A stretch of DNA of 30,472 bases, from positions 1 to 30,472 of IMG/VR virus record IMGVR_UViG_3300016476_000568. One strand, given 5' to 3'. A program made the translations under genes and the position numbers. Positions 3,051 to 30,130 of the stretch are shown in pieces (positions within the stretch are counted from its first letter, which is position 1; each line of letters opens with the position of its first letter). The DNA is from a virus. Taxonomy: Duplodnaviria > Caudoviricetes. The notes under the pieces were generated by a model. It was not told the DNA's origin and searched no databases. It saw nothing but the letters and a program-made list of their open reading frames with translations.

Positions 3051-4852
3051 TACGCCATCTTTCCAAATCCCTGGGCCAAGCCCATCGCTACGTTACGGTA
3101 TATATCTTTAGCCTGGTCAGTGTTCTGCCACTCAGGAAGGCTACGAAGATACTTGTTCCACTCCCACAAATCCATCTGACGGTACTCGTTCGTCTTCGGG
3201 TCACGATAGTTAAGAGCCTTGTTCCACTTGTCGCTAGTCCAGTCAATCTCAGACATATCAACAGCAGAACCGAGAGTTGCCTGGGCCTGTTGCTTATAGG
3301 CGTACAGTGCTGTCTCAACGTCCTGTCCTTTGTCTAGGGCTGGCTGGAGTGAACGGAACTGTGTCTTGGCGGAGTCACGCATGAGGTCTTCCCATTGTGT
3401 CTCTGATTTTTCACCACGCATAATCTGTTGAATCCAAGTATCAATCTGCGAGTCAGATGGTTTCTGTGCATACGCCGCAGCCTTCTGGCGAAGGTTGCGT
3501 CCGACAACACCTGAACGCAGGTCAGCGATTCCTTGTGCGCCACCAAGTTGTGCAGTAGCAATCGCTTCGGAACCAATAGCATTTGAGAGTTGCTGTGCTG
3601 ACCAGCCAAACTTGATTTTATCTGTGGCTAGTTTGCGGAGAGTGTTGTCGTCAAGAGTGATGCCTGTCGCTGTTGTGCTGGCTCGCAGCCCTTCTACTTC
3701 CTGGTTGATTTCGTCATCCAGAGTTGCTGGGTCTGTTGATTGGCGGATAGCGAACTGACGGGCAGACTGTTGGGTAGTACGGAACCAGCCAGTGTTAGTC
3801 AACGAAGCCGTCAACTTAGTTTCGTCATTGAACCAACCTTCCTTAACGGACTGGTCAATAACTTTCTTCACATCGGCGTTGCCGTTGTATACGTCCCAGA
3901 GTGAACCGAATTCTTGCTGGATGATTTGTTGCCAACGTTGTCCACCAACTTTGACTTTTTCTCCATCAACAACAACAGTTGTTCCGCCACCAGCAGCAGG
4001 TCGGCTTGGTGTCGTTGTTGTTTTCTTGGTTGTCGTTGTTGTCTTAGGGGCTGTCGGGCCTGTCGTTTTCGCACCTGTTGGGCCAGTAACTTTTGCGCCT
4101 GTTGTAGTGGTTGTTGTTGGACCAGTCGGGCCAGTAGCACCAGTAGGCCCTGTCTGGGTTGCAGTTGCAGTTTTACCAGAACGGAGATTATCAATGACAG
4201 CATTTCTACGGTCAAGTTCTGCCTGATTGGTAACAACTTTACGAGTAGACCTTGTTGCCGAAGGACCATTACCCTTAATAATTGTTTCTGTTCTGATGGT
4301 TCCCTGTTCGGCAAATCTGTCAAGGAACTGGTCTGCCTGCTTCGGGCTTTCCGTTAAGAAACTTTTGAATCGTGAATCCTTTGTCGGGTCAATAGCAATA
4401 TTGGTTAAACGTGTAACATCTCTGCCGTTTTCACCCTTTAATGTGACTTCACGTTTTACAACAGCAACAATGTTCTTGTTTGATTTAACAAAATCAGAAA
4501 CCTTTTTCCACGCTTCATAGTTCGCTACAGCACTGTCAAAGTCTTTTACATCAATAGCGGCGGCTTCATTGTAGAGACGCAAGAATTCTTCACCAGCAGC
4601 ATTTGATTTTGCTTGGTCACCAACACTAGGTCCGTATCTGCCGTACTTCTTTTTGTCTGCTTCAAGTTGTTTTACTTTTGCTTTTTTGTCTTTGATTAGT
4701 TTGTCAAGTTGAGAAGATGTGTAGGTCTTACCACCAACAACATAACCACGTTTCTTGCTGTCATATGAAACTGTATTCAGGTCTTCAATTTCCGAATTAA
4801 GTTTCTTAATGTCGTCATCGTAGAAGTTTGGGTTAGGAACATATGATGCCAT
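3050..4852 (-). CDS. Putative internal virion protein with Thr/Gly/Pro-rich linker
   Basis: 600 aa; central TGPTGATGPTGPTTTT tract. Confidence 0.7.
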   Translation of the reverse strand: MASYVPNPNFYDDDIKKLNSEIEDLNTVSYDSKKRGYVVGGKTYTSSQLDKLIKDKKAKVKQLEADKKKYGRYGPSVGDQAKSNAAGEEFLRLYNEAAAIDVKDFDSAVANYEAWKKVSDFVKSNKNIVAVVKREVTLKGENGRDVTRLTNIAIDPTKDSRFKSFLTESPKQADQFLDRFAEQGTIRTETIIKGNGPSATRSTRKVVTNQAELDRRNAVIDNLRSGKTATATQTGPTGATGPTGPTTTTTTGAKVTGPTGAKTTGPTAPKTTTTTKKTTTTPSRPAAGGGTTVVVDGEKVKVGGQRWQQIIQQEFGSLWDVYNGNADVKKVIDQSVKEGWFNDETKLTASLTNTGWFRTTQQSARQFAIRQSTDPATLDDEINQEVEGLRASTTATGITLDDNTLRKLATDKIKFGWSAQQLSNAIGSEAIATAQLGGAQGIADLRSGVVGRNLRQKAAAYAQKPSDSQIDTWIQQIMRGEKSETQWEDLMRDSAKTQFRSLQPALDKGQDVETALYAYKQQAQATLGSAVDMSEIDWTSDKWNKALNYRDPKTNEYRQMDLWEWNKYLRSLPEWQNTDQAKDIYRNVAMGLAQGFGKMA

Positions 4853-14376: not shown

Positions 14377-14428
14377 GAGTGTTGCAAATAGTACCACACC
14401 CCTGTAGAGTTGGTGCTGAAATAATTAT

Positions 14429-14457
14429 TTGCCAAAATAAATTTCAACCTATATAGT
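14429..14457 (+). promoter_or_regulatory. Sigma70-type promoter for ncRNA 1
   Basis: TTGCCA-N17-TATAGT; +1 near 14464. Confidence 0.7.
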
Positions 14458-14463
14458 GTTAGT

Positions 14464-14661
14464 AGAGAAATAACGAAGCAGTAACGGCGGGACTGCACAA
14501 ACCAGCGACTAAGGCGTCCTACACAAGGGCATCGTATCCAACTAAACCTTCTAAACACAGCCTTGAAAACTGTGGGATACGGTGAAGATGCAGGGACATT
14601 ACGGCGCAGTTTGAACCACAGGTTTAGGTGGTCGTGGGTTCGGCTCCCATCTTATTTTTCT
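14464..14661 (+). ncRNA. Putative tRNA-shaped structured RNA with expanded anticodon-arm domain
   Basis: Terminal stem, D-like arm, long central arm, variable arm, T-like arm and an 8-bp loop pairing. Confidence 0.65.
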
Positions 14662-14669
14662 GCTACACT
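14661..14669 (+). promoter_or_regulatory. Extended -10 promoter for ncRNA 2
   Basis: TGcTACACT; predicted +1 coincides with the first stem at 14675. Confidence 0.6.
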
Positions 14670-14674
14670 ATGTA

Positions 14675-14932
14675 GCGCAACAGAGCAAGTCCCCCACGAT
14701 GGGAATCGTTAGGGCAAGCAGGGCTGTACCTCATTTGCACGAGGCGGGGCGTTTAATACACGGGAACGTGGGTTGATGTTTCCTGCAACCAAGCAAACAT
14801 TAAGTAGTTGATTGCCCCTGTTGCGTAAGAGAAACAAGCAGCGTCATCAACGTCATATGATGAAAACATGGTGTCGGCTAGAATTGCCACGGCGACCAAG
14901 AACATATTGTTCTGAACTGTGGGGGAGGCTAT
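14675..14932 (+). ncRNA. Putative large multi-pseudoknot RNA
   Basis: Many nested stems, two GNRA tetraloops, three long-range pairings, no ORF. Confidence 0.65.
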
Positions 14933-14952
14933 CTAGATTATCTGTTGACCTG

Positions 14953-15005
14953 TTCCGCTTCGCTGTCGCTTGCGGCTGACGCCCTCACTACGTTCGGTTG
15001 TCGGC
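14953..15005. other. ssDNA hairpin element resembling a primosome assembly or single-strand initiation site
   Basis: Minus strand has GAAGCGG and the GNA-triloop mini-hairpins GCGAAGC and ACGTAGT. Confidence 0.4.
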
Positions 15006-15361
15006 AGAGAAAACATGAACAAGCGTGATGCCCAGGTCCACCTCGGAGGGTTACTTTTCTTTTTTCTCTTTTTTTCTTTTGAGAATATTCAACTGCTCTA
15101 GAAGAAGAACCTCACAGACGTTCGGCCCGCCCAGACATATGTAAAACACGGACAGCAACCCACCCCATTCCAGAGCCAACCAACTTGCCAACCACACACG
15201 TCAGACCCCACCAACAACACAACACGGCACACACCAAAAGAGTGAAACCATCCCTCTCTGATATATACATACATAGCGCCCCCGTAGCCTCGGCAGACCC
15301 CCAGTTGCGGTAGGTTTTCTACCTACTAGACGGTAGGGACATTGCGTTACGCTACCCAACC

Positions 15362-15375
15362 CGAACAAATGTTCG
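15362..15375. promoter_or_regulatory. LexA (Gram-positive/actinobacterial SOS) box-like site
   Basis: CGAAC-AAAT-GTTCG. Confidence 0.6.
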
Positions 15376-15552
15376 CTAACTGTTGCTAGCACCCCCCACC
15401 ACCCCAGCAAGCACCACGAAAAGTCACAGACTGCCGACCAACAGTCAGAACGTAGACTGTCCGCCTAGAAATAATGAGAGTGGTTGGGAATGAGAATGGG
15501 TGGGAATGGGAGCAGTCGGTGTCTGTTGGTTGTGGCAGCGGGGCGCTGGTGG

Positions 15553-15566
15553 CGAACGTGTGTTCT
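15553..15566. promoter_or_regulatory. Second LexA box-like site
   Basis: CGAAC-GTGT-GTTCT abutting the CRP-like box. Confidence 0.5.
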
Positions 15567-15581
15567 GTGACAAGTGTCACA
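15566..15581. promoter_or_regulatory. CRP/GlxR-like operator, copy 1
   Basis: TGTGA-CAAGTG-TCACA, 10 nt upstream of the -35. Confidence 0.65.
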
Positions 15582-15591
15582 TAGAAAAGGC

Positions 15592-15620
15592 TTGACAGGG
15601 GGGTAGGGATTTTGTAACGT
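15592..15620 (+). promoter_or_regulatory. Early promoter P1
   Basis: TTGACA-N17-TAACGT. Confidence 0.7.
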
Positions 15621-15665
15621 AGTAGGCATAGAGGAACGGGGCAACCCGAACTAGTAGATAGAGAA

Positions 15666-15681: not shown

Positions 15682-15703
15682 TTCAGAGAGAAAGGTAGAG
15701 AGA

Positions 15704-15898
15704 ATGGCAACAGAGAGGTGCGAAGTGTGCGGTATTAGTTGGGAGACATACGAGGCAACCCAACCAGACTGCGAGGGTGGCGAGGAGTGCCACGATTGGG
15801 AAGACTCTATGAATGATGACGAAATGCCAGAGGGTGAGAACGTCATTATCGGCGGGCAGAGCGCCTACAAGGTGGGCGGGTTCATTACTTGGGATTAG
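15704..15898 (+). CDS. Small acidic Cys-rich early protein
   Basis: MATERCEVCG...; AGAAAGG RBS. Confidence 0.7.
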   Translation: MATERCEVCGISWETYEATQPDCEGGEECHDWEDSMNDDEMPEGENVIIGGQSAYKVGGFITWD

Positions 15899-15954
15899 CC
15901 GAAACGCCTACGGGCGTCTACGGGGGATAGTCTCCCCGTACTGACGAGGCAGAC
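15898..15954 (+). ncRNA. Hammerhead ribozyme, type II
   Basis: GCC-GAAA-CGCC(TACG)GGCG-TC^-TACGGGG(GATAGTCT)CCCCGTA-CTGACGA-GGC-AGAC; complete catalytic core. Confidence 0.92.
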
Positions 15955-15973
15955 AAATAGAAAGGGTCAGATA

Positions 15974-16150
15974 ATGAACACAACAACAGCGGACAAGTGG
16001 CAACACTTTACAGATACGGAAATAGACATTCTGTATTCGGCGTTAGCCCTCTACCGCAAGCAATGTCACAAGGTAATCCAACAGCAGGCGCACAAGGTGG
16101 CAGACGATTTGATTGCCGACCTAATCAACATTCCTAGAAAGGGGAACTAA
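15974..16150 (+). CDS. Small early protein, 58 aa (MNTTTADKWQHF...), not in ORF track
   Basis: AGAAAGGG RBS; TAATG coupling to next gene. Confidence 0.75.
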   Translation: MNTTTADKWQHFTDTEIDILYSALALYRKQCHKVIQQQAHKVADDLIADLINIPRKGN

Positions 16151-16350
16151 TGGCAACGAAATACAGGGCTATCTTTTACATACAAGATAGGAACGGCTAC
16201 AAGTGGGCGGAAACTACTACCCCACTATGGGACACATACGAAAAGGCGGATAGCACCGCCCGACAGTATGCGGACATCATCAACGGGGCTACCAGTCATA
16301 GGGTAGTGACGGGCTACGCAATCAAAACCACAGAAAGGGGCGAGCAATGA
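16150..16350 (+). CDS. Small early hypothetical protein
   Basis: 66 aa; AGAAAGGGG RBS. Confidence 0.75.
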   Translation: MATKYRAIFYIQDRNGYKWAETTTPLWDTYEKADSTARQYADIINGATSHRVVTGYAIKTTERGEQ

Positions 16351-16517
16351 ACAGAAACGACAACGTGACCGAACAGGAACTAGAGAACTATTACAACCTG
16401 AAATGGGCGCTAGCAATCCTGCGTAGGGTTCAGTCGGGGCAGGGTCGCCACGATTGGGAGTTACCTTACGCAATCAGACGGCTAGAACGGTTACAGGCAG
16501 GCATTACAGACAAGTGA
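16347..16517 (+). CDS. Small early protein, 56 aa (MNRNDNVTEQELENYY...), not in ORF track
   Basis: AGAAAGGGG RBS; ATGA overlap. Confidence 0.7.
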   Translation: MNRNDNVTEQELENYYNLKWALAILRRVQSGQGRHDWELPYAIRRLERLQAGITDK

Positions 16518-16568
16518 CAAGTGTCACAGGGTTTATGGGTTGCCTATTCTCCCCGACTGTGTTACGGT
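16513..16568 (+). promoter_or_regulatory. CRP-like operator copy 2 plus early promoter P2
   Basis: GTGACAAGTGTCACA identical to copy 1, 11 nt before TTGCCT-N17-TACGGT with TGn extension. Confidence 0.65.
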
Positions 16569-16620
16569 TGGGGGGAGTGGGGAGAGCATAAGGCTATTCC
16601 ACAAATAGAAAGGGGCAGAA

Positions 16621-16887
16621 ATGCCAACAGAAAACAAATTAGAGAGAGTGACCCTCTCATATCACCAATCAGTAGAAACAAGGTTCCTACCAAATACTCG
16701 CCGTATCAAGGTTGTGGCAAGCGGTGGGGTGACTAAATCCTACGTATGGAATGACGCCCTAGACGTGGCAGAAAATCACGCCCGTGCTATCCAACAATTC
16801 CTAGATTTTATGGAATGGGGCGGTACCTACACTATCGGTTCTAGTGTTTCGGGTCGGGGTTATGTCGCCGTAAAGGTGGGCGCATAA
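16621..16887 (+). CDS. Early hypothetical protein
   Basis: 88 aa; AGAAAGGGG RBS. Confidence 0.78.
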   Translation: MPTENKLERVTLSYHQSVETRFLPNTRRIKVVASGGVTKSYVWNDALDVAENHARAIQQFLDFMEWGGTYTIGSSVSGRGYVAVKVGA

Positions 16888-17078
16888 TGGAAACCTACAC
16901 CGTGACAAGAGACGGGCGTACCCTCGCCACAGTCCCAACAGAGAGCGAGGCGTGGCGCTGTCTCCACAACATACAGGGACAGAGTATCGGTCACGCCGTC
17001 ACATACGAGGGCTACGACATCATCTACCCCAACGGGGCGAAACTATCCACCTACTACAAGAGAACAGGGAACAACTAA
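16887..17078 (+). CDS. Early hypothetical protein
   Basis: 63 aa; TAATG coupling. Confidence 0.75.
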   Translation: METYTVTRDGRTLATVPTESEAWRCLHNIQGQSIGHAVTYEGYDIIYPNGAKLSTYYKRTGNN

Positions 17079-17299
17079 TGAGAGTGGCATACAAAATCCA
17101 CAAGACAGGCACACCAAAAATAGCCAACGACAGGGGGCGTCTAGTCCCTGCGGGGTTGTGGTGGCACGGCGCAGAATGGGGCGGAACAGATAACGCCCTT
17201 ATCTATGACACCAAAACTACTGCCCAACCATTACCAACCTATGGCGATTGGGAATGGGTAGAGATTTATCTCAACGAAACAACAGAGGGGAACAACTAA
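17078..17299 (+). CDS. Early hypothetical protein (MRVAYKIH...)
   Basis: Start moved to the TAATG overlap. Confidence 0.72.
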   Translation: MRVAYKIHKTGTPKIANDRGRLVPAGLWWHGAEWGGTDNALIYDTKTTAQPLPTYGDWEWVEIYLNETTEGNN

Positions 17300-17601
17300 T
17301 GGCAACGCTCACACAACAACAAGTGGACACCCTAAGGTATGTCTGCGACCTAACAGAGACGGAACTACGAGCCTATTCAGGTCGGGCAATGTATGGCGAG
17401 GTATGTCTAGGGATTGTGATAGACGGGGCAGGCGACCTATTCGCCCTCGCTCTAGAAATACAACGGCAAGACCCCGACCTAGCGGTTCTGTTAGTAAACC
17501 AATGTTGCCGTACGGACAGTATGGGTAGCAGAGAGATTGTCTATTGGCAGTATGTCAAGACGGCAGGGACAGATTTAGACGATAACGAGGAGGAGGACTA
17601 A
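17299..17601 (+). CDS. Early hypothetical protein with YSGRxMYG..CLG motif
   Basis: GAGGGG RBS and TAATG overlap; motif recurs in phage proteins of unknown function. Confidence 0.78.
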   Translation: MATLTQQQVDTLRYVCDLTETELRAYSGRAMYGEVCLGIVIDGAGDLFALALEIQRQDPDLAVLLVNQCCRTDSMGSREIVYWQYVKTAGTDLDDNEEED

Positions 17602-17960
17602 TGACTACCACACAGATACGGCTACTACCTGAAAAGGTGACAGAGTATGTCCGCTACGTCATCACCTACGAGGAAATCGGAGAACGCCACAAGGCTAACG
17701 CTGGTCGGGTTCTGCGGGAGATGTGGGAGGAACTAAACGCCTCGCCGTTCTACCCGCCGACAGGTTTGGATTGGGCGGAAATTGTGGCGGATTGGCAGGG
17801 TGGATACATTCACGACCCTGCTATGACTACGGCACAGATACTTGACACCGTGCGTGATGTGGCTAATACTTACCTTGACCAATGGGAGACAGGGGAGTGT
17901 GTGTCTTGCGGGTCGGGCGGTTGGGTGAACCCCAACGGCGAATGTTCGGATTGTGAATAG
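17601..17960 (+). CDS. Early protein with C-terminal CxxC..CxxC zinc ribbon
   Basis: CVSC...CSDC; GGAGG RBS. Confidence 0.75.
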   Translation: MTTTQIRLLPEKVTEYVRYVITYEEIGERHKANAGRVLREMWEELNASPFYPPTGLDWAEIVADWQGGYIHDPAMTTAQILDTVRDVANTYLDQWETGECVSCGSGGWVNPNGECSDCE

Positions 17961-17975
17961 AGAAAGGAAACAACA

Positions 17976-18134
17976 ATGAGTCAGGAAACAGTAGTCGGGT
18001 TATGGGTTATCACGGCACCGCTAGTAATCTTTATTGGTGATGTCTTGTATAAGGCTATGAAAGAGTATCGGGTGGAGCAGAGGCGGTTGTCTCGGTCTAA
18101 TCACCCAACAAGTAAAGGTCTGCCTCGCAAATAG
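17976..18134 (+). CDS. Small single-TM early protein, 52 aa, not in ORF track
   Basis: MSQETVVGLWVITAPLVIFIG...; AGAAAGG RBS. Confidence 0.68.
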   Translation: MSQETVVGLWVITAPLVIFIGDVLYKAMKEYRVEQRRLSRSNHPTSKGLPRK

Positions 18135-18160
18135 GCGGGGTTAGAGAAAGGGAAAACAAA

Positions 18161-18382
18161 ATGAAAAAGCAACAACTATTAGAAATCCTTAGCGAGATTG
18201 GGGACAACGAGGAAATCGCTGTACCTATCATCTGGACTAAGCAAGACGCCGAACAACTATTTGATGTTGTTCTGACCGATACTGAATGGTCTAGCGTTGT
18301 GGATACATACACCAATGGTGACTATCACGACAGCGAGGCTATGGAGTCTGCGGTAGAGGCTTTCTACAAGGCTGATAAGTAA
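18161..18382 (+). CDS. Acidic early hypothetical protein
   Basis: 73 aa; strong RBS. Confidence 0.78.
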   Translation: MKKQQLLEILSEIGDNEEIAVPIIWTKQDAEQLFDVVLTDTEWSSVVDTYTNGDYHDSEAMESAVEAFYKADK

Positions 18383-18401
18383 TAGAGAAAGGGAAAACAA
18401 A

Positions 18402-18521
18402 ATGGAAATGGAAATGTGTGTGGCTTGCCACAATGTAGAGACAGAGGACAGTCTGTGTGATGACTGTTTCGCAGAGTTACCTATGGATACTTGGGTGACT
18501 GTTACAGAGAAAGGGAAATAA
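18402..18521 (+). CDS. 39 aa CxxC..CxxC micro-protein, not in ORF track
   Basis: MEMEMCVACHNVETEDSLCDDCF...; preceded by the repeated RBS module. Confidence 0.7.
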   Translation: MEMEMCVACHNVETEDSLCDDCFAELPMDTWVTVTEKGK

Positions 18522-18523
18522 CA

Positions 18524-18745
18524 ATGGAAACAAACCGATACCACCTTGTCACCTTGACGGTGACATACAGGGTGGAAGAAGCAAAAAATAATGATGAAGC
18601 AATAGACATTGCGGTGCGTACTATCCAGCCACCAACAAACCTTGACGGTGTGGTGTTGGAAGATTATTGCGATTGGTTCTGTTCACACATTAGCGAAACA
18701 GAAGAAGGCATTGAGTGTCTATCTATTACAGAGGAAGGGAAATAA
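18524..18745 (+). CDS. Early hypothetical protein (METNRYHL...)
   Basis: Start placed after the RBS module. Confidence 0.75.
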   Translation: METNRYHLVTLTVTYRVEEAKNNDEAIDIAVRTIQPPTNLDGVVLEDYCDWFCSHISETEEGIECLSITEEGK

Positions 18746-18747
18746 CA

Positions 18748-19029
18748 ATGGAAACAACAACATTCAACAACTACACAGAGGAACAGGCGCTACTGCTTGT
18801 CTCCAAATTCGCCCAACGTTTTGGGTGGAAGTACACAATGTTTACTCGTGATGATGTGCGACAGGCAATCATTGACCATTGCGGGGAACGCCCAACACTT
18901 GACCTACAAGTGGACAAGGTAATGGCGACCCGTATGTGGGTCAAGACATTAGAGGACTCTATTATCCGTGAGGGTATGGAATGTATCTATGACGCCGTGC
19001 GTGAGGTTGAGGAAAAGGTGACGCTGTGA
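18748..19029 (+). CDS. Early hypothetical protein (METTTFNN...)
   Basis: Start placed after the RBS module. Confidence 0.75.
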   Translation: METTTFNNYTEEQALLLVSKFAQRFGWKYTMFTRDDVRQAIIDHCGERPTLDLQVDKVMATRMWVKTLEDSIIREGMECIYDAVREVEEKVTL

Positions 19030-19223
19030 GTATGACAGATAGCAAATACGCAGTAGCACATAGAGTCACATTCGTACTGCCATACGCCACCCTTACTACG
19101 GTTGTGTATGCGGTAGATGAAGATGAGGCTTTTGAGAAGGCACACCAATTCATTAGAGATGAATACGGCTGGCAACCTGAGATGTTCGCACAGGACATTG
19201 ACGTAGAAAGAGAGGAACGATAA
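19026..19223 (+). CDS. Early hypothetical protein
   Basis: 65 aa; overlapping junctions. Confidence 0.72.
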   Translation: MSMTDSKYAVAHRVTFVLPYATLTTVVYAVDEDEAFEKAHQFIRDEYGWQPEMFAQDIDVEREER

Positions 19224-19495
19224 TGACTGAGTTGGTACGACCATTAGACGCTATGCCGTTGCGAGTAAAAGCGTTCGCCCGACTATGGGCTATGAAATGG
19301 ATAGCAAAACACCCCGACTGGGCTGACTCAGGTGGAACGTATGAAGACCACTGGTATCAGTTCGGTGACTACGACCTAAACCTGTGGTGTGAAGATGGTC
19401 GCCTGCGGGTATCGGCCTATGCGCTCTACAAAGACAATGAAGATTTGACGACTGACCATTCTGATTGGGTCACGATTGTAGATAGGGAAGGCTGA
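19223..19495 (+). CDS. Early hypothetical protein (Trp-rich)
   Basis: 90 aa; TAATG coupling. Confidence 0.75.
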   Translation: MTELVRPLDAMPLRVKAFARLWAMKWIAKHPDWADSGGTYEDHWYQFGDYDLNLWCEDGRLRVSAYALYKDNEDLTTDHSDWVTIVDREG

Positions 19496-19758
19496 TGAAT
19501 AAGACATACGAGATTGAGTACGTCGGTATCCATACTGAGGTCGTACACCGTGAGGTTGTCACCGTTGATGGGCGTTCCGCACGACAGAACCGTGTCCCAA
19601 CCTGTCTTATTGAGTACGCCGACCACTATGCTAAAACATTTTGGAAGGCATACAAGTATGAGATTAGCCTCTATAAGCCACCGCACATCACCGCCTCAGG
19701 CGTACAGATTGGGGTAGCGCACCTCGTCTATACAGGGATAGTGGATGAAAACTGTTAG
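19495..19758 (+). CDS. Early hypothetical protein
   Basis: 87 aa; TGATG coupling. Confidence 0.68.
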   Translation: MNKTYEIEYVGIHTEVVHREVVTVDGRSARQNRVPTCLIEYADHYAKTFWKAYKYEISLYKPPHITASGVQIGVAHLVYTGIVDENC

Positions 19759-19999
19759 GTATTTGACAGGGACACTACGCACAATCCATAACACCAAGCA
19801 GGCTGAGAAACAGGTCAGGTTTATCATCAAGAAACGTTATGCCCCACGCCCTATGTTCTACCGTATGACCCTGTGGGGTTACGAGTGGGACAGGAACCGT
19901 GACAAGGCTACGGTGTTCCCCAATCGGAGATTGTTAGACGCCGAGTTGGTCGCTACCACTATGGCTATCTATGACCATTATGAAATAATACAAATCTGA
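19745..19999 (+). CDS. Basic early hypothetical protein
   Basis: 84 aa; last plus-strand gene. Confidence 0.68.
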   Translation: MKTVRYLTGTLRTIHNTKQAEKQVRFIIKKRYAPRPMFYRMTLWGYEWDRNRDKATVFPNRRLLDAELVATTMAIYDHYEIIQI

Positions 20000-20016
20000 G
20001 TTGTGTTACACTCAGT

Positions 20017-20064
20017 AGTGACCCTCGTGTGATGTCCCCCCTTCCGTCACACGGGGGTCACTTG
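20017..20064 (+). ncRNA. C6-loop hairpin A (putative sRNA; may also act as the convergent terminator)
   Basis: 18-bp stem with G-U pairs on the + strand, loop TCCCCCCTTC, preceded by TGtTACACT at 20004-20012. Confidence 0.55.
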
Positions 20065-20527: not shown

Positions 20528-20711
20528 GTTCTACTTCCGACATTGGTGTGTCCTCTGTGTAGATACGGACTACAAGGATACAGGGGTCGCCCCCTTCGTC
20601 CCATTCTTTTTCTTCCGCTTCGGATTGGGGTACACCTTCGTGGGTGTCACACGCTATGCGTGAGCAGAACCCGTGTTCCCTGCCGATTGCTATCCATTCG
20701 TGTAGTTCCAT
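20517..20711 (-). CDS. Small phage protein (C..C.TH.G.P...W..G.DPC)
   Basis: TAATG overlap at 20711. Confidence 0.75.
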   Translation of the reverse strand: MELHEWIAIGREHGFCSRIACDTHEGVPQSEAEEKEWDEGGDPCILVVRIYTEDTPMSEVERDH

Positions 20712-21526
20712 TACAGACCGCACATCCCTTCACATTCTTGATTGAATAAAGACAAGATACCTTTTTCTTCTTTGGTTCTTAGGTCAGCCTCAGCCAACGG
20801 CACCTTTGACTGGTGTAGATACGGAGTCCCACGGTAACGGGCAACTAGATGTGGCAGTGTGCGTAAAGCATTATCAAACTCCACAGCATCAGCCCATTCT
20901 TCTTCGTTCTCCCGTAACGCCCGCCATTCGTCAGCGTTCTTGAAAGGACACCCAATGCAGGCGGAACGAGGGGGGAGTGCGTACCCTTTTTCGGCGCACC
21001 AATCCAAACAATCTTGTCTGGTGATGCGCTTGTCAATCAGTGGGTATTCGTGTTGTATCCACGAGAACTGTGGGTCTTTGATGCGTTGCACTTCGTCCCA
21101 AGAGATACCGATAATGGTTGTGATGCGGTGTTCTTTGCAGCGTTGACCTGATTTCAGACCAGCCAGTTCTCTTTGCTTCTTCATCAGTGGGGCAAGTTTG
21201 TATTCGGCTGTGCATTGACGGCGCACCATACCTTTCTTGCCGTCCTCACCAATAAGGTGCAATGGCATAGAGGCGTACCGTTTCCCGTCAGTCAGGAAAT
21301 CTTCCCTGATGTTTCCCTTTGACACCATATGGAATGGCATCTTTGCTTCTTCCATTAGCCCTTTGAGATAGTCAAGGTGTTTGTACACAGCCTTTGGTTC
21401 CCAGCCTGTGTCGGCAAAGATAACGTGGTCGGCTCGTTCTACTTCACCGTGCAACATCATCAGCAACAAGGTGGTTGATTGCACCCCTGCCCCCAACGAT
21501 AAAACTCTTAGAGGGTATTCACTCAT
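20711..21526 (-). CDS. PAPS-reductase-like PP-loop (adenine nucleotide alpha hydrolase) protein
   Basis: SLGAGVQST, FADTGWE, RQCT..YK..P, IGISWDE, SACIGCPF, terminal CEGMC. Confidence 0.85.
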   Translation of the reverse strand: MSEYPLRVLSLGAGVQSTTLLLMMLHGEVERADHVIFADTGWEPKAVYKHLDYLKGLMEEAKMPFHMVSKGNIREDFLTDGKRYASMPLHLIGEDGKKGMVRRQCTAEYKLAPLMKKQRELAGLKSGQRCKEHRITTIIGISWDEVQRIKDPQFSWIQHEYPLIDKRITRQDCLDWCAEKGYALPPRSACIGCPFKNADEWRALRENEEEWADAVEFDNALRTLPHLVARYRGTPYLHQSKVPLAEADLRTKEEKGILSLFNQECEGMCGL

Positions 21527-21614
21527 TGTCTTTCCTTTCGTACCACCAGTTCAGTGCTGTCGCAACCAGTACACAGTACAGGAGTATGAGTATGGGTGCG
21601 TACAGGAAGAACAC
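21519..21614 (-). CDS. 31 aa hydrophobic peptide, not in ORF track
   Basis: GTG start overlapping the ssb stop; MFFLYAPILILLYCVLVATALNWWYERKDNE. Confidence 0.5.
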   Translation of the reverse strand: MFFLYAPILILLYCVLVATALNWWYERKDNE

Positions 21615-22015
21615 TAGAATGGTTCTTCGTCCGACAGTGCTGGCATTTGCTTACCGATAAAGCCTGTCTGCGCCATTACCTTTTCGGTTTGGTCAGCAAC
21701 CCAAGCGTTCCAGCGGCAGGAAGCACCAACTTCGTCTGCGATTAGTTTGCGGGCGACACCTTTTGTGCCGTCTTTCTTGGTGTATTCCTCTTGCTCAAAG
21801 CGACCCGTGATGATGACGCTTGTGCCTTTGGTGATGGTGTTGGCTACGTTCTCTGCGAGTTTGCCGAACACCATAATGTCCCACCAGGTTGTTTTCTTTT
21901 TGTCATCTTTGCCGTAGTTGTCTGCCACGGTGAAGGTGAGTACGGCGTTTCCGCCTTGTGAGAAACGGAGGTCTGGTTCTTTACCGACTGTTCCGTGTAC
22001 GGTTACATTGTTCAT
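21614..22015 (-). CDS. ssb: Single-stranded DNA-binding protein
   Basis: OB-fold motifs G....P.LRF, GKLAEN, acidic EEPF tail. Confidence 0.93.
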   Translation of the reverse strand: MNNVTVHGTVGKEPDLRFSQGGNAVLTFTVADNYGKDDKKKTTWWDIMVFGKLAENVANTITKGTSVIITGRFEQEEYTKKDGTKGVARKLIADEVGASCRWNAWVADQTEKVMAQTGFIGKQMPALSDEEPF

Positions 22016-22029
22016 TTGTTTCTTCCCTT

Positions 22030-22674
22030 CTAAGGATTGAATAGTGGCAGTGGTACATCTACCCCTGACCAGTTTACTTTGTTCACGATGTTTATCAACT
22101 TTGGTGTATTTTTATCGGGTCCGAAAGCCAGATAAGTTCCATCAACAGAGTCAACACCCCATTGTTTTGCTAACAACATTCGTTTGAAAGAGTTTACTCT
22201 ACCCATATGTACCCATATGGATAAAGATTTTGCTTTTTGGCACATTTCTTTTGCTGTGTTTGACAATTTGAATTCTGTTGTGCCTCCAATAAACAAACAT
22301 CCCATTGTTTCCCACGGGATTGTTGCTTCTTCTGCCCCGTCTTGGAGAACAAACGCTGGTTTGTACCCCAGGTCAGCAACCGTTTTATAATAGTGGTTCC
22401 ATCTTTCAACAGTCTTATCGTGGTCTGCGACCACATCGGGAACCGTGGCAAATAAAGCATCCTTTGGATTGTCAAAACTTTTAAGCCACGAAACCCACAC
22501 GTTTTCGTCCCATTTCTCAGCGAAGCACCCGTTATCAGCAGCCCAAGACCACTGATACGGGGACGCTTTCGTGCTTCGTTGACTAAATGGTGTAAGCATC
22601 ATTCCTATGCCATTATCTTGTAATGCTTTTTGGATTTCAAGATTTGAAGGCAGGCATCCGCTTAGATAAATCAT
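22030..22674 (-). CDS. TGT-fold protein, candidate DpdA-like DNA deazaguanine transglycosylase
   Basis: DNGCF (cf. DSGGF), PDVV, VLQDG, FIGG, VHMGRVN, DSVDGT in TGT order; adjacent to VUT gene. Confidence 0.65.
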   Translation of the reverse strand: MIYLSGCLPSNLEIQKALQDNGIGMMLTPFSQRSTKASPYQWSWAADNGCFAEKWDENVWVSWLKSFDNPKDALFATVPDVVADHDKTVERWNHYYKTVADLGYKPAFVLQDGAEEATIPWETMGCLFIGGTTEFKLSNTAKEMCQKAKSLSIWVHMGRVNSFKRMLLAKQWGVDSVDGTYLAFGPDKNTPKLINIVNKVNWSGVDVPLPLFNP

Positions 22675-23176
22675 TCGCAATCCAAATCAAAACACCACCG
22701 ACTAAAGCCATTTGTGTTTTGCCGATAACCTGACCTTGCCAATACTGGGTTGAGCCAAAAGCAATTTGTAAGAACACGAACGAGTCAATGACCCCGCCAA
22801 TAAAACCTGACGAGACTACAGCGCCAACTAGTGTTTTTTCTTTGAGGTTTGAATACACCAAAAAGTCTGCCAGTTCACCCAATGCGAAGGCTACTGCGCT
22901 GGCAATGGCTACGGCAGGGTTGATGAAGTACGACAGAAGGACACCAACACCCATAGCCTGCAATGTGGTTGTCTTGCCATATGTGTTTTGCACAATGTCA
23001 CGCATAAACATCGCAATGCCAATCATCAGAACACCTGATGGGGCGTTGTACCCAAACCCTACTGGGATTGTGTGTGGTCCTCCTGGAAAAAATTGAGTTC
23101 CTACATTGGAAATCATCCAGTTGGCAATGGGAATTGTCGCTAAGTACAAACTGATTAGTGTGATTTTCTTTCTCAT
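22637..23176 (-). CDS. VUT/YhhQ family queuosine-precursor transporter
   Basis: Multi-TM; ANW, RDIVQ..YG, IASAVAF..GELADF.VY, DSFVFL.IAFG, GQVIGK. Confidence 0.88.
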   Translation of the reverse strand: MRKKITLISLYLATIPIANWMISNVGTQFFPGGPHTIPVGFGYNAPSGVLMIGIAMFMRDIVQNTYGKTTTLQAMGVGVLLSYFINPAVAIASAVAFALGELADFLVYSNLKEKTLVGAVVSSGFIGGVIDSFVFLQIAFGSTQYWQGQVIGKTQMALVGGVLIWIANDLSKRMPAFKS

Positions 23177-25204: not shown

Positions 25205-25370
25205 TTTCCCACGCCTCCTGAATCAACATTCGTAACGCTTGTGATTTGCTGACACCACGAGACAATGCGATTGTTTCAATCTGTTGGAACTGTTTACTTG
25301 TGACCCGTAAACCAATGAAGCGGGTTGATGCCACTTCACCTTCGGGGTCTACTGTTTTCTTAGCCGACAT
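25185..25370 (-). CDS. Ribbon-helix-helix DNA-binding protein
   Basis: FIGLRVT...IE.IA..RGVSKSQALRMLI. Confidence 0.72.
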   Translation of the reverse strand: MSAKKTVDPEGEVASTRFIGLRVTSKQFQQIETIALSRGVSKSQALRMLIQEAWENVQEPF

Positions 25371-26083
25371 TACTGTGCCTTCTTCGCTTCTTGGAAAGCC
25401 TTACGCAAAGCGTTCAGGTCTTTCTGTGTAGCGAAACCAAACTTCACATTGGCGTCACGATAGATGGTGATAGGGCTGAGGTTCGCTTGGGTGCAAGCCT
25501 TGTTGAACGCTTCAATCTGTTGCTCTGTCAATGGTGCGTCAGGGTTTAACGCTGGTTCTGTTGGCTTTTGTTGTGGCGTTGGCTTTGCGGGTGTGGGCTT
25601 TGGCGCTGGCTTATCACCATCAAGGTCTGCCCACTGGTTCTTAGTCCACAAGTTCAGTGAGATACCGAAACGCATAGACGCATTACGAAGGAAGTCACCG
25701 ATAAGTTCTTTGTCAAGGTCTACCTTGTCTGCTTTGACTGACCCGACACCAAGCATTTCTTTGCCGTGTACTGTGAGCCAGCCCCACATAGTTGCCATAC
25801 CGTTCTCAACGTGGATAGCGGGACGTCCATTCACCCAGCCACAGGGTTCCCATGACCAGTATGGGTCAATCTCAATGAGGATACGGGTGATGTCTGCGTG
25901 ACCTACGAAGTCCAGTTTCACTCCACCTTTGGGGAGTTGCTGAACGATTGATGGGTCTGGCTTGGCGTAGTCCTTGAGGATGTTACGCAGTTCTTTTTCT
26001 TTATTTGTTTCCATTGGTTGTACCTTTCTCGGTGTTTGATATGTGTAAGTGATGTGCTGTTCGTTGTATTTCTTTTCGTCCAT
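25370..26083 (-). CDS. Rad52/Sak-like single-strand annealing protein
   Basis: LDFVGHADIT..L..IDP.WSW, KELIGDFLRNASMRFGI...LW; follows YqaJ. Confidence 0.8.
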   Translation of the reverse strand: MDEKKYNEQHITYTYQTPRKVQPMETNKEKELRNILKDYAKPDPSIVQQLPKGGVKLDFVGHADITRILIEIDPYWSWEPCGWVNGRPAIHVENGMATMWGWLTVHGKEMLGVGSVKADKVDLDKELIGDFLRNASMRFGISLNLWTKNQWADLDGDKPAPKPTPAKPTPQQKPTEPALNPDAPLTEQQIEAFNKACTQANLSPITIYRDANVKFGFATQKDLNALRKAFQEAKKAQ

Positions 26084-26085
26084 TG

Positions 26086-27033
26086 TTACTCCCCTTTCAA
26101 GCGAAGTGTTCTACTGGTTGATGTCTTAACATACTTGTCGTATGTGTCAGGGTTTTCTGCTTGGAACTTCTTGGCGTCAAACCAGTCCCGCTTGTATCCC
26201 TTCCACGTTGCTACGACAGTGCCGTTGATTGTGGCTGTTTCATTTGCCCCAATCAGTTCACACAACTCAGCCTTCAAACGGTCCTCCATCTGTTTATAGG
26301 ATGCAAGTTCACTCTTGACGTGTTTGAGTTGGGCGATTAAATCCGCTACTGATGGTTCAAGTTCAACAGGGTTTGAATCTGTTTGTTGGTAGCGGGTAGA
26401 GATTGATTCATAGGAGTACACAACTCCTGGTGGGTCAATGCCGAGAGCGATGTTGTTCAGCCATGCTGCTGTGGCGTTGATGTGTTCTTCTTTCTCCTCG
26501 TCTGTGACGTTCTGTTCTACAAGGGTGAGGCGAAGTGTGTTGTCAAAGATTGCCCAGGTCACACGAGTGGCGTCTGAGCAGATTGCTTGCTGTACACCCT
26601 GGATACGCCAGTAGTCGGGCAGTGTGCCTGAGTATTCACGGCTTGTTGTTTTTACTTCAAGGATGTGTTTGGTGTCTTCGTTCCAGCCGTCAAGGGTGGA
26701 GATGAGGTGTGACCCGTTGTCATCGTCATAGCAGAACAACTCGTCAGGGGTGACGAACTTGATTCCGAGACGGTCACCTGCCCATTGGATGATGGTGTCT
26801 TCTAAACGGTTGCCTGTTTCCATTGCAGCGTTAGGTGGGATTGGTGTTGGTGCTACGCCTGACAGTAGTTCTGCTGCGTATACGTCTTGCTTGACGAATG
26901 GGTGCAGGCCGTAGATTGCTGCGGCTGCTGATGCTGAGATGCGGCGGTTGCCGTTGTCATCTTCGTAGCGTTGGTTCAACCATTCTTGTGAACCGTGTGG
27001 TGCTTTGGCAATGCGGTAACGCTTGTGTGCCAT
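26086..27033 (-). CDS. YqaJ-like viral recombinase exonuclease
   Basis: EWL..R, ISAS, GN.LE, STLDG, LEVKT, P.YW..Q..QQ. Confidence 0.9.
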   Translation of the reverse strand: MAHKRYRIAKAPHGSQEWLNQRYEDDNGNRRISASAAAAIYGLHPFVKQDVYAAELLSGVAPTPIPPNAAMETGNRLEDTIIQWAGDRLGIKFVTPDELFCYDDDNGSHLISTLDGWNEDTKHILEVKTTSREYSGTLPDYWRIQGVQQAICSDATRVTWAIFDNTLRLTLVEQNVTDEEKEEHINATAAWLNNIALGIDPPGVVYSYESISTRYQQTDSNPVELEPSVADLIAQLKHVKSELASYKQMEDRLKAELCELIGANETATINGTVVATWKGYKRDWFDAKKFQAENPDTYDKYVKTSTSRTLRLKGE

Positions 27034-27082
27034 GTGGGATTCCCCTTCCTTCTGTGTTGTACATATGTGCTATGTATAAAAC

Positions 27083-27486: not shown

Positions 27487-27618
27487 CTATGCGGCTTGGT
27501 GGCGGGCAATCAGGCTGTCAATCGTGTTAATAAGGTTGACCAGTTCTTGTTCTTCTGGCCCACGAACCACGACTTTTATTAGGAAATGACGGATGGAAAG
27601 CAGTTGTGTCAGAGTCAT
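27487..27618 (-). CDS. 43 aa hypothetical protein (MTLTQLLSIRHFL...), not in ORF track
   Basis: Fills the gap; TGaTACTCT upstream. Confidence 0.6.
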   Translation of the reverse strand: MTLTQLLSIRHFLIKVVVRGPEEQELVNLINTIDSLIARHQAA

Positions 27619-27634
27619 AGGACCCGACAGAGTA

Positions 27635-27865
27635 TCACTTAGGCTTAGTGATGTACGCTTCTACAAGCGTCAAACGATTCTCAATTCTGTCCAGAGAATC
27701 ACGCACCGAAGACCCGCTATTGGGCTTCATTTGTTCCTCAACAAAGTCAATAGTTCGTTCTAGTTTCTGCCCCCATTTGTACACAGGGTAAATCACAGCA
27801 CGGTGGATAACACCGAGGGAAACGATTGCGCCCGCAACCATCCCCAACCAATCAACGGGACTCAC
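27635..27865 (-). CDS. Single-TM lysis-cassette membrane protein (holin-like)
   Basis: N-terminal TM then PNSGSSVRDSLDRIE; follows endolysin. Confidence 0.65.
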   Translation of the reverse strand: MSPVDWLGMVAGAIVSLGVIHRAVIYPVYKWGQKLERTIDFVEEQMKPNSGSSVRDSLDRIENRLTLVEAYITKPK

Positions 27866-28434
27866 TCCCCACCGTCACAATACTGCCAGTGCCAAGCCTC
27901 AAACTCAGGAGACTTAGGGTCAGAACCCTGCAAATAGAAACCATAGGTGGGAGCGTTCAAACACATCCACTTAAACGCTTTCTTTGCTGATGCCATACCA
28001 ACAATGTTTCCGCCCTTGCCCTCTACCGCCAAGTCAATAGCGAGGCCCCAACCGTGGTTAGAACCTGACTTACCTGTTGGGTCTGGCGCTGCTGATGGTG
28101 CTTTGCCTTTCTTCAGAATCCACGTCTTGCCGTCATACTTACGGGTCACAACCTTTGGCTTCTTCAAACGAGGGTCGTTTGGTTTCGCTGGTTCATAACG
28201 GTCAAGGAACATTTGCAACTGCCCATCAAACGAACGGTAATCACCAATGTTTCTGAGGGTGATTCCTGCTGCGAGGGCTGCGTCATACATCTTGTTGAAC
28301 TGTTCGGCTGCAGTCTTATACATCTTTCCGCCTGTCTTTACACGTTCAAGCAAAGCCTTGTCAAGTCGTCCGTTAATTTGACCTTTCAAACCTTTCGGCA
28401 GAACCAGTTTCTTGTATGGGTATTGCTTTGCCAT
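27862..28434 (-). CDS. Endolysin, peptidase M15 (VanY-like)
   Basis: YRS...Q, SNHGWGLAID, EAWHWQY. Confidence 0.88.
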   Translation of the reverse strand: MAKQYPYKKLVLPKGLKGQINGRLDKALLERVKTGGKMYKTAAEQFNKMYDAALAAGITLRNIGDYRSFDGQLQMFLDRYEPAKPNDPRLKKPKVVTRKYDGKTWILKKGKAPSAAPDPTGKSGSNHGWGLAIDLAVEGKGGNIVGMASAKKAFKWMCLNAPTYGFYLQGSDPKSPEFEAWHWQYCDGGE

Positions 28435-28449
28435 TTGTTTGTTTCCTTG

Positions 28450-28478
28450 TTGCTTTTGTTATAAGACGGTGGTATGTT
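28450..28478 (+). promoter_or_regulatory. Antisense-oriented promoter for C6-loop hairpin B
   Basis: TTGCTT-N17-TATGTT with TGn extension; +1 near G28485. Confidence 0.6.
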
Positions 28479-28484
28479 TCTGTT

Positions 28485-28531
28485 GCCTCTAGCAAGGTCG
28501 TTCCCCCCTTTCTCCCTTGCTAGGGGCTTTT
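28485..28531 (+). ncRNA. C6-loop hairpin B, ~47 nt putative sRNA
   Basis: 13-bp stem, loop TCGTTCCCCCCTTTCTC, TTTT tail, own promoter. Confidence 0.65.
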
Positions 28532-28535
28532 ACTA

Positions 28536-28709
28536 TTAGTCGTCATCCACGCCAACACCAAAGATGATGGCGACAATCTGTACGAATAGTGTTGCGGCGC
28601 TGATGAATAGGGCTTTTTGTAGCACCTCTCCAGACAGGGTAATAAGAACAAATCCTGTACCTGATGCCCATAGCAACAGTGATGTGATTGCTCCTAAATA
28701 CTTACGCAT
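28536..28709 (-). CDS. 57 aa two-TM membrane protein, not in ORF track
   Basis: MRKYLGAITSLLLWASGTGFVLITL...IIFGVGVDDD. Confidence 0.72.
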   Translation of the reverse strand: MRKYLGAITSLLLWASGTGFVLITLSGEVLQKALFISAATLFVQIVAIIFGVGVDDD

Positions 28710-28720
28710 AGATACCTACC

Positions 28721-29830
28721 TTACCATTTACGGGCTGTGACTATTGCCGCCCCTAATAAGGTGACGGACACTACGATGAGCGCACGGCGCTGCGAGACAG
28801 GGATAGTGGAGCCGAGTGGGACGTAGGTATCTACTGCCCCGCCGAAGATGTTGACCTCGGCTTCAAAGGATTCTCGTACCTCTGCGGGGGCTTCTTGTAC
28901 GGCTGCGACCAGGGCTTCGGCTTGTTCCTCGGATAGTTCAGTCACGTCTAGGGTGGCGAATACTTCGCTGGCTTCTTCGGCTGTGAGTTCCGCTACGGCT
29001 TCAGGGTCGGTTGCTACCGCCACTGCTTGTGCTTGTGTGATTGTTTCGGGTATTGTCGTGGTTGATGTGGGTATTGGATTTAACAGGGTTGTTGTTGTCG
29101 GCGGCAGTGTGCTTGTTGTCGTACTGGTGGTGGAAGGAGCAGCAGTCGTAGATGTGGTGGCGAGTTGAGTTGTTGTCGTGGAGATTTCAACGGTGGTTGA
29201 AACGGGTACAGAAGAAGATGTGGTGGTCGTTGGTTCCAGTGTTGTTGTGGTGGTTGGTTCTAATGTTGTCGTGGTGGCTCCTGTCGTGGTTACTGCGACC
29301 TGAGTGAACGCCGTATCAGGAACAACGTCCCATGTGTCGTTCAGGTTCCACCACAGTTGGACCCAGGCCCCGCCCCCATTCTCATAAAACCACAGTGTTA
29401 TCTTTTTAGATACCCCCTCTTGGAACGGGACGGGCTGGCTCATTGAGCCGCCACCACCCTTGTCGTACCAGTCAGACGTAACTATCTCATCGTCCAAATA
29501 CAGGATTGTCCCGTCATCTGCGAGGGCTATAAACCGAATATCACAGGTACAGGGTGCTGTTATGAAACCTTCGTATTTAACTACGAAATCCTCATACATT
29601 TGAAACACAGGGGACTGGTCAAAATTTTGATTGATTCCAGAAAATACGGTAACGCCTGCCACCTGCCCTGTTGGGGGTAAAGGTGGGGCGTTGTTGTATC
29701 CCCTGTTGTTATAGACCGTGGCAGTTAGCCCTGGTGTTGTATCTGCTTTCGCTCCTGCTGTGGAGAGTAGGGCAGTAGCCCCTATCAGTAGAAGTATGGC
29801 TCTAGAGAGCCGAGTCTTCACTGGCCTCAC
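28721..29830 (-). CDS. Membrane-anchored PA14-domain protein with Thr-rich stalk
   Basis: Signal peptide, ADDG..LYLD and FYENGGGA..QL.W PA14 motifs, Thr/Ser tract, C-terminal TM. Confidence 0.82.
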   Translation of the reverse strand: MRPVKTRLSRAILLLIGATALLSTAGAKADTTPGLTATVYNNRGYNNAPPLPPTGQVAGVTVFSGINQNFDQSPVFQMYEDFVVKYEGFITAPCTCDIRFIALADDGTILYLDDEIVTSDWYDKGGGGSMSQPVPFQEGVSKKITLWFYENGGGAWVQLWWNLNDTWDVVPDTAFTQVAVTTTGATTTTLEPTTTTTLEPTTTTSSSVPVSTTVEISTTTTQLATTSTTAAPSTTSTTTSTLPPTTTTLLNPIPTSTTTIPETITQAQAVAVATDPEAVAELTAEEASEVFATLDVTELSEEQAEALVAAVQEAPAEVRESFEAEVNIFGGAVDTYVPLGSTIPVSQRRALIVVSVTLLGAAIVTARKW

Positions 29831-30080
29831 GCTTCACGCCGAACGCTGCGTCTACTTCATGTGCTTCCAACTTGCCGTCAAGTGAGGCTTTGGCGAGATT
29901 CACGAGAACGTCTGCTACTGCGTGGAATCCACCGAGGGCTGCTGAGTACCAGAGTGGGATTTGGACATCGGTTGCTACGCCGTTGATGATGCTGGAGCCT
30001 GTGATGATGGTAAGGCTGGACATGATGAACAGGGCCAAGATGCGTGATACGACATCTTTAGCAATCTTCAGTGACAACAT
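29802..30080 (-). CDS. Two-TM membrane protein (holin-like)
   Basis: 92 aa hydrophobic; DGKL...EVD..F tail; TGcTAAGAT promoter at 30120-30128. Confidence 0.7.
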   Translation of the reverse strand: MLSLKIAKDVVSRILALFIMSSLTIITGSSIINGVATDVQIPLWYSAALGGFHAVADVLVNLAKASLDGKLEAHEVDAAFGVKREASEDSAL

Positions 30081-30130
30081 GAGAGGTTCTCCTATGGGTT
30101 GGCCCCTCCTGGCCTACCTATCTTAGCAGG

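Follow-up and report, generated by a model that had tools for sequence, protein, structure and literature searches.

The S. aureus RNAIII and the RsaE/RoxS C-rich-loop sRNAs block the translation of several mRNAs by pairing a loop with the Shine-Dalgarno (SD) sequence. These RNAs are chromosomal, of larger size and marked by UCCC motifs; their targets are mixed, they have no role in phage temporal control and no shared ribosome binding site (RBS) serves as an address. The P1 C4 and P4 CI RNAs are phage-encoded and act in trans on phage mRNA. They are processed, serve immunity control through one or a few dedicated targets and do not read the RBS of a whole class of genes.

The actinobacterial 6C RNA (RF01066) has been shown to pair with the RBS through C-rich loops in a chaperone-free manner (PMC6486639). 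The cuckoo RNAs of Alphaproteobacteria combine variable, covarying stems with a fixed anti-SD-like loop and are described as 2-4 adjacent hairpins, each with CCUCCUCCC (PMC4615179). A further parallel is provided by the SAS of cluster K mycobacteriophages and cluster EF Microbacterium phages (PMC3203893, PMC7302621, PMC11373665), an unusually conserved RBS on non-structural genes with one reverse copy. The passages on SAS in these papers describe no RNA partner and state the role as unknown, from 2011 to 2024 (PMC3203893, PMC11373665). Whether RNA or protein binds was left open by those who defined the motif (PMC3203893).

The locus described here, H1 (28450-28531, + strand), and a second promoter-hairpin unit overlooked by the preliminary description, H2 (20017-20062, + strand), lie 8.4 kb apart in a 30.5-kb window (the whole stretch of DNA analysed, 30,472 nt). 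The window is part of a podovirus-like phage encoding portal, terminase, capsid, WhiB, SSB, a RecE-like exonuclease, a VanY-type endolysin and an annealing protein. The inferred early region is a run of small genes on the + strand (15704-19999), with everything else on the - strand. An actinobacterial host is inferred because the phage carries WhiB, and among cultured phages the closest capsids belong to Streptomyces cluster BF (41-46%). The best sequencing-run holder and most labelled holders of related sequence are freshwater metagenomes; a RecE search of genome contigs found no relative.

H1 shares with anti-SD sRNAs an open pyrimidine loop, a conserved stem and SD complementarity. It is similar to 6C RNA in its open C-rich loop, predicted to pair with a G-rich RBS, and in its actinobacterial setting. 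However, 6C RNA is chromosomal and has two conserved C-rich loops, whereas H1 is a phage-encoded single hairpin with 2-6 C and an invariant CUUUCU. The link to 6C RNA drawn initially was not borne out, as RF01066 (gathering score 47) gave no match at H1 up to E 10 and only 15.9 bits (E 6) at H2, and six C occur in 1/20 homologues. Membership through two C-rich loops was rejected, there being one hairpin per unit and 8.4 kb between the units. No Rfam family matched H1 or H2 at gathering level. Membership of the cuckoo RNAs was ruled out by the single hairpin and by the different loop, CC(C)UUUCU, which shifts with the phage's own RBS and belongs to another host group. An intrinsic terminator was also rejected for H1, given the 16-17 nt loop, the loss of the U tract in several relatives and the absence of a + strand gene upstream. 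No description of H1- or H2-type units was found in the main text of open-access papers. The novelty would lie in a minimal, phage-encoded and separately promoted pair, the loops of which appear to track class-specific RBS variants of the same genome.

The H1 and H2 units and their conservation

The coordinates first given for H1 all held when the sequence, fold and RBS list were checked. A predicted -35 hexamer, TTGCTT (28450-28455), is followed after a 17-nt spacer by a predicted extended -10, TGg-TATGTT (28470-28478), and 6 nt separate the -10 box from the stem. The 5' arm (28485-28497), with a predicted +1 at or near G28485, forms 13 bp with the 3' arm (28515-28527), including one G.U pair; both arms are supported by fold and covariation. 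These enclose an open 17-nt loop, TCGTTCCCCCCTTTCTC (28498-28514), which is the complement of the GAGAAAGGG-type RBS and is mostly unpaired in the ensemble. A short U tract, TTTT (28528-28531), marks a possible 3' end. The energy of the fold is -22.7 kcal/mol (z -4.2), matched by 0/200 shuffles. The minus strand reaches almost the same stability (-21.4 kcal/mol), hence energy alone cannot assign the strand. The promoter is missed by a standard promoter scan because its hexamers score under the threshold. When both strands of the 30-kb window were scanned for stems of at least 9 bp beginning 4-10 nt after a -10-like box, only H1 and H2 (20017) were returned. The flanking genes, both on the - strand, are those for the VanY-type endolysin (27862-28434) and a 57-aa membrane protein (28536-28709), which are given as context.

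A promoter and hairpin with stem covariation, as anticipated in the preliminary description, were found in relatives. In an alignment of 20 homologues with 256 stem cells, with a slight misalignment of two rows whose stem has 11 bp, 98.4% of the stem cells were paired (0/500 shuffles match; slid controls 39-61%), and double-sided changes occurred at 6 of the 13 stem pairs. The non-Watson-Crick pairs were G.U on the + strand, at 7 of the 13 stem positions, with A.C in none of the 11 distinct stems. This fixes the strand as + and agrees with the initial statement that the G-U pair works only on that strand. The loop motif CTTTCT was invariant in 20/20 homologues, while the C run ranged from 2 to 6 and reached six in the window alone (1/20). 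The conserved part is CC(C)UUUCU, and the six-C run of the preliminary description is not retained.

The own-promoter pattern, predicted from sequence, was conserved in all 14 H1 units considered. Each has TAnnnT 6-8 nt 5' of the stem, 13 have the TG extension and 9 have TTGnnn 17 nt 5' of the -10; the background frequency of the extended -10 is 0.19%. The T, A and T positions of the -10 hexamer were invariant in 20/20 homologues, with the remaining letters varying. The U tract is replaced in several relatives.

A pattern scan of viral contigs identified H1 at 17 of 27 loci, the other 10 being unrelated hairpins which were dropped. H1 was present upstream of 10/80 endolysin relatives, and further copies were obtained from additional pattern and protein scans of viral contigs; a separate 80-locus pattern scan gave chance matches in most. 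The unit is not tied to one neighbour. It is missing beside an endolysin 84% identical, does not adjoin the endolysin gene in G004 or G021, and lies within a minus-strand ORF in G007. In the latter (C1, about 4700-4790; L230), the promoter and hairpin are overprinted in the Thr/Pro-rich part of a 351-codon ORF. Cultured phages had no DNA match to window positions 27600-30100. A metatranscriptome contig of one relative covers H1 (27688-28565); neither strand nor ends are visible in it and it was not counted as evidence.

H2 is located at the end of the early block and has a predicted extended -10, TGt-TACACT (20004-20012, + strand), with no -35. Its hairpin (20017-20062, + strand) has an 18-bp stem and the loop TCCCCCCTTC (20035-20044), which complements the GAAGGGG-type RBS. 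Among 14 H2 units the -10 was found in 13, the TG extension in 12 and a -35 in none. H2 was seen at the early-block end in nearly every relative covering that place, with quite different stems and a CCCCTTC-type loop. It may double as a terminator of convergent transcripts. In the window an inverted repeat straddles the H2 -10 box. At the H2 position of G007 (C1, about 35895-35965) there is a small hairpin with an anti-SD loop and then an ordinary terminator, a split version of H2. In G019 (L052) a promoter-anchored hairpin 5' of the endolysin, at the H1 position, has the H2-type loop TCGTCCCTTC, and GAAGGGA sites are used by RecE and two other middle genes.

Predicted targets in this and cultured phages

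The early gene block (about 15688-19999, + strand) contains predicted H1 sites at 15688, 15959, 16136, 16332, 16607, 17960, 18144, 18385 and 18507, together with weaker ones. All RBS positions listed in the preliminary description are present in the sequence. A Watson-Crick run of at least 7 with the H1 loop was found at 11/18 early, 1/17 middle and 0/17 late starts (Fisher p 1e-4), for 52 hand-picked starts (three listed positions are 1-3 nt off the start codon) classed by gene order and function, not by transcripts. The early-late gap was equalled by 0/300 shuffled loops. The mean duplex energy of the H1 loop was -13.6 kcal/mol at early, -9.1 at middle and -7.4 at late starts, and that of the 16S tail, as a control, was -9.9, -8.6 and -7.8 kcal/mol (p 0.053). 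The one middle gene with an 8-bp H1 match encodes the single-strand annealing protein (25370-26083), with the RBS GAAAGGGG at 26091-26098 (- strand). Late genes had been said mostly to use AAGGAG, AGGAG or AAGGAA or to be leaderless; only 5/17 late starts have one of these three SDs, and the others have a different SD or none.

With automatic gene calls, H1 favoured early over late starts in 5/5 H1 genomes tested (p 0.003 to 4e-5). The 16S tail also pairs better with early than with late starts in most genomes tested, so part of the H1 selectivity reflects stronger early SDs. In G001, H1 pairing of middle genes equals that of early genes. The H2 loop has a single 7-bp match in the window, the RBS GGAAGGGG (27042-27049, - strand) of the RecE-like exonuclease gene (26086-27033), which is the best predicted H2 target. 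This loop corresponds to the GAAGGGG-type RBS in front of RecE and SSB.

Co-change of loop and RBS was clearest for H1 in L234, the one clean switch, where AGAAAGGU sites occur with a ACCUUUCU loop. Here AGAAAGGT is found at 8/14 early starts and the H1 loop is TTACCTTTCTT. As read from the sequence, the two changes compensate each other exactly and depart from the 16S complement. When matched and permuted pairings of H1 were compared over 8 related lineages, the result was borderline (p 0.051) and carried by L234 alone. For the H2 loop and the RecE/SSB RBS of the same genome, matched pairings were better than permuted ones (p 0.009) over 14 lineages, which are also related and include an L285 value inflated by a loop shortened in the folding step. 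The clearest H2 switch is that of G021, with the loop TTCCTTCC and GGAAGGA/T sites in RecE and SSB. Two RecE-tree clades have no H1, and their typical early site is GAAGGGG, matched by H2. In G016 and G017, GAAGGGG early sites were forecast from the absence of H1 before inspection and were then found. The early blocks of G008, G009, G011 and G025 have a CTTAAGTC/CTTAAGAC motif directly before the ATG at many early starts, which is a second start-associated motif in the H1-less clade.

There are also counter-cases. In G004, 9/17 early sites are of the AGAAAGGA type, yet the loop has CCC; the G022-G024 clade has 5-6 AGAAAGGG sites but no H1; and the H1 loop of G021 fits GGGAAAGGGG better than its own AGAAAGGGA early sites. 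The H1 loop still forms 8 bp with the GAGAAAGGA and GAGAAAGGT sites of the window. The strict code first suggested, in which GGGG-type and not GGAG-type sites would be recognised, is unsupported in view of these pairings and of the G004 and G022 clade cases. The main discriminator of H1 pairing appears mostly to be the 5' AGAAA extension.

A comparable arrangement was found in cultured Streptomyces phages of cluster BF. In all five, the early-block genes share GGGAGAG (9/10, 8/11, 7/11, 9/11 and 8/14), and a long hairpin with a changing, covarying stem follows just after the early block, its loop CTCTCTCCC being the complement of the GGGAGAGAG early sites. These hairpins are on the - strand (L348, 38100-38061; L349, about 11101; L350, about 11444; L351, about 10730; L352, about 11918). 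The architecture differs from H1, since the BF hairpin has no visible promoter of its own. A second conserved multi-stem element is located one gene upstream of the hairpin.

In the examined stretch of the cluster K phage Adephagia, SAS occurs 16 times in forward and once in reverse orientation, and the reverse copy forms the loop of a long hairpin (L342 33683-33695; JF704105 58682-58694) between genes 92 and 93. This interval has been reported as the start of late transcription (PMC11373665). The Adephagia hairpin is part of a longer leader rather than a 47-nt unit and has no sequence homology to H1. A clean match of loop and SAS was present in 2/5 cluster K phages examined; the loop of Unicorn has no exact SAS match, and no such loop was found in the stretches of ShedlockHolmes and Omnicron examined. 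The cluster K system combines a 13-bp SAS motif with ESAS inverted repeats; the early RBS of the window differs from that SAS motif.

Proposed mechanism and alternatives

A self-contained + strand unit with an anti-SD loop apparently aimed at the phage's own early RBS is supported, as the stem covaries, the promoter is conserved, the unit occurs in different locations and the loop varies with the RBS. Sequence comparison establishes the fold and its strand, a promoter pattern, complementarity that is selective for a gene class, and loops that change together with the RBS. Taken with the gain and loss of the unit, this comparative signal exceeds that of a single-genome match. H1 probably encodes a trans-acting repressor of early translation of about 47 nt, with H2 acting likewise on GAAGGGG sites. 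The RNA would be made by the host RNA polymerase and would build up after infection in a timer-like manner. Through 7-9 bp of loop pairing in trans, without a chaperone, it would occupy the extended SD on early mRNAs and outcompete the 16S tail, so that translation of the early genes would be blocked together as one class. H2 would do the same for RecE, SSB and, in H1-less clades, the early genes, and may additionally terminate the early transcript. As the H1 promoter resembles early promoters, the late timing of the RNA is only proposed.

A wider interpretation, offered tentatively and with rather less than even expectation, is that actinophages use an RBS address code. Each temporal class would carry a private SD variant read by a co-evolving minimal hairpin RNA (H1 for early genes, H2 for recombination and replication), which together would constitute a protein-free translational timer. 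If true, this would also explain the GGGAGAGAG hairpin of the BF phages and the SAS with their single reverse copy in cluster K. Early protein shut-off is poorly known in small lytic phages with no evident repressor, and a 47-nt RNA reading a class-wide RBS would supply a mechanism both for it and for the SAS motifs. The cultured BF phages render the idea testable on Streptomyces lividans. For work in Actinobacteria, an H1-type RNA would in addition offer a small genetic part that turns off sets of genes and needs no chaperone.

It is unlikely that H1 RNA mainly silences the early mRNAs of a second, related phage, in superinfection exclusion or a carrier state, and not the phage's own genes. 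The P1 C4 and P4 CI RNAs do act in immunity, most H1 loops pair about equally with the early sites of related genomes, and an early-type promoter would yield RNA from the start. However, the phage's own early mRNA has identical sites and would also be affected. A search with 52 proteins from the complete relative G004 (its set less the portal and one large virion protein) found no integrase or partition family, which gives no sign of a lysogenic state.

Host shut-off, in which the loop would be a 16S-tail mimic directed at host mRNAs whose SD is an extended AGAAAGG, its match to the phage early RBS following from both copying the tail, is distinctly unlikely. The invariant CUUUCU equals the 3' end of the actinobacterial 16S tail, and the early sites of G004 are canonical AGAAAGGA. 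The loops nevertheless leave the tail in step with the phage sites (ACC/GGT in L234; CTCTCTCCC/GGGAGAGAG in the BF phages), and no targets would suit it better than the early genes of the phage itself. A host with a CCCCC 16S tail is unsupported, with 2 matches in 185,579 genomes, both CPR (many MAGs have no 16S), so the G-type sites do not look copied from a variant host tail. Pairing of the 16S tail to SAS has been discussed for cluster K (PMC3203893).

It is decidedly improbable that the role of the hairpins is in cis only, either to terminate antisense transcription or to modulate the overlapped lysis mRNA as a perfectly matched antisense RNA, with the C-rich loop serving termination and the RBS match secondary. 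The hypothesis that C-rich stem-loops act as terminators is mentioned in PMC6486639. H2 is at a convergent junction, where a terminator is expected, H1 is always found within the lysis region, where it is antisense to the late mRNA over its full length, and the BF phage hairpin, with no visible promoter, is in the leader of the next gene. A conserved promoter directly 5' of the stem is unexpected for a terminator, though, and a cis-antisense RNA needs no fixed loop, yet CTTTCT is invariant while the stems vary. H1 is also dispensable beside the 84% identical endolysin. A minus-strand element, in which the loop on the late mRNA would present GAGAAAGGG as a decoy, a standby site for ribosomes or a leader of the endolysin gene, is highly improbable: that strand folds nearly as well and the hairpin is about 50 nt 5' of the endolysin start in most relatives, but every non-Watson-Crick pair is G.U on the + strand and would be A.C on the other, the + strand promoter pattern is conserved, H1 is located inside coding sequence in G007 and does not neighbour the endolysin gene in G004 or G021, and homologue lists inspected by eye gave no small ORF or conserved start codon behind the minus-strand loop.

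Other features of the genome

Between the terminase and the early block (14400-15660), about 1.2 kb has no convincing gene and contains CA-rich and T-rich tracts, possibly representing genome ends or an origin. Two palindromes lie 5' of the early promoters of the window. They are identical, 14 bp long (15567 and 16514) and just 5' of the early promoter-like sites 15592 and 16540, and are candidate operators. The middle block includes PAPS-reductase-like and Vut_1 (queuosine precursor transporter-like) genes (20711-23176, - strand), which are missing in several relatives.

A type II hammerhead ribozyme (RF02276, 57.6 bits) is found at 15897-15958 (+ strand) and ends 1 nt before the RBS of the early gene at 15974. 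Self-cleavage would leave early mRNAs with a 5'-OH end. Hammerheads are also present in the early region of G002, G004 (two copies) and G007, and those that were viewed stand immediately ahead of an RBS; the loci in relatives are L194 18292-18362 and 18642-18712, L190 11130-11191 and L252 12133-12196.
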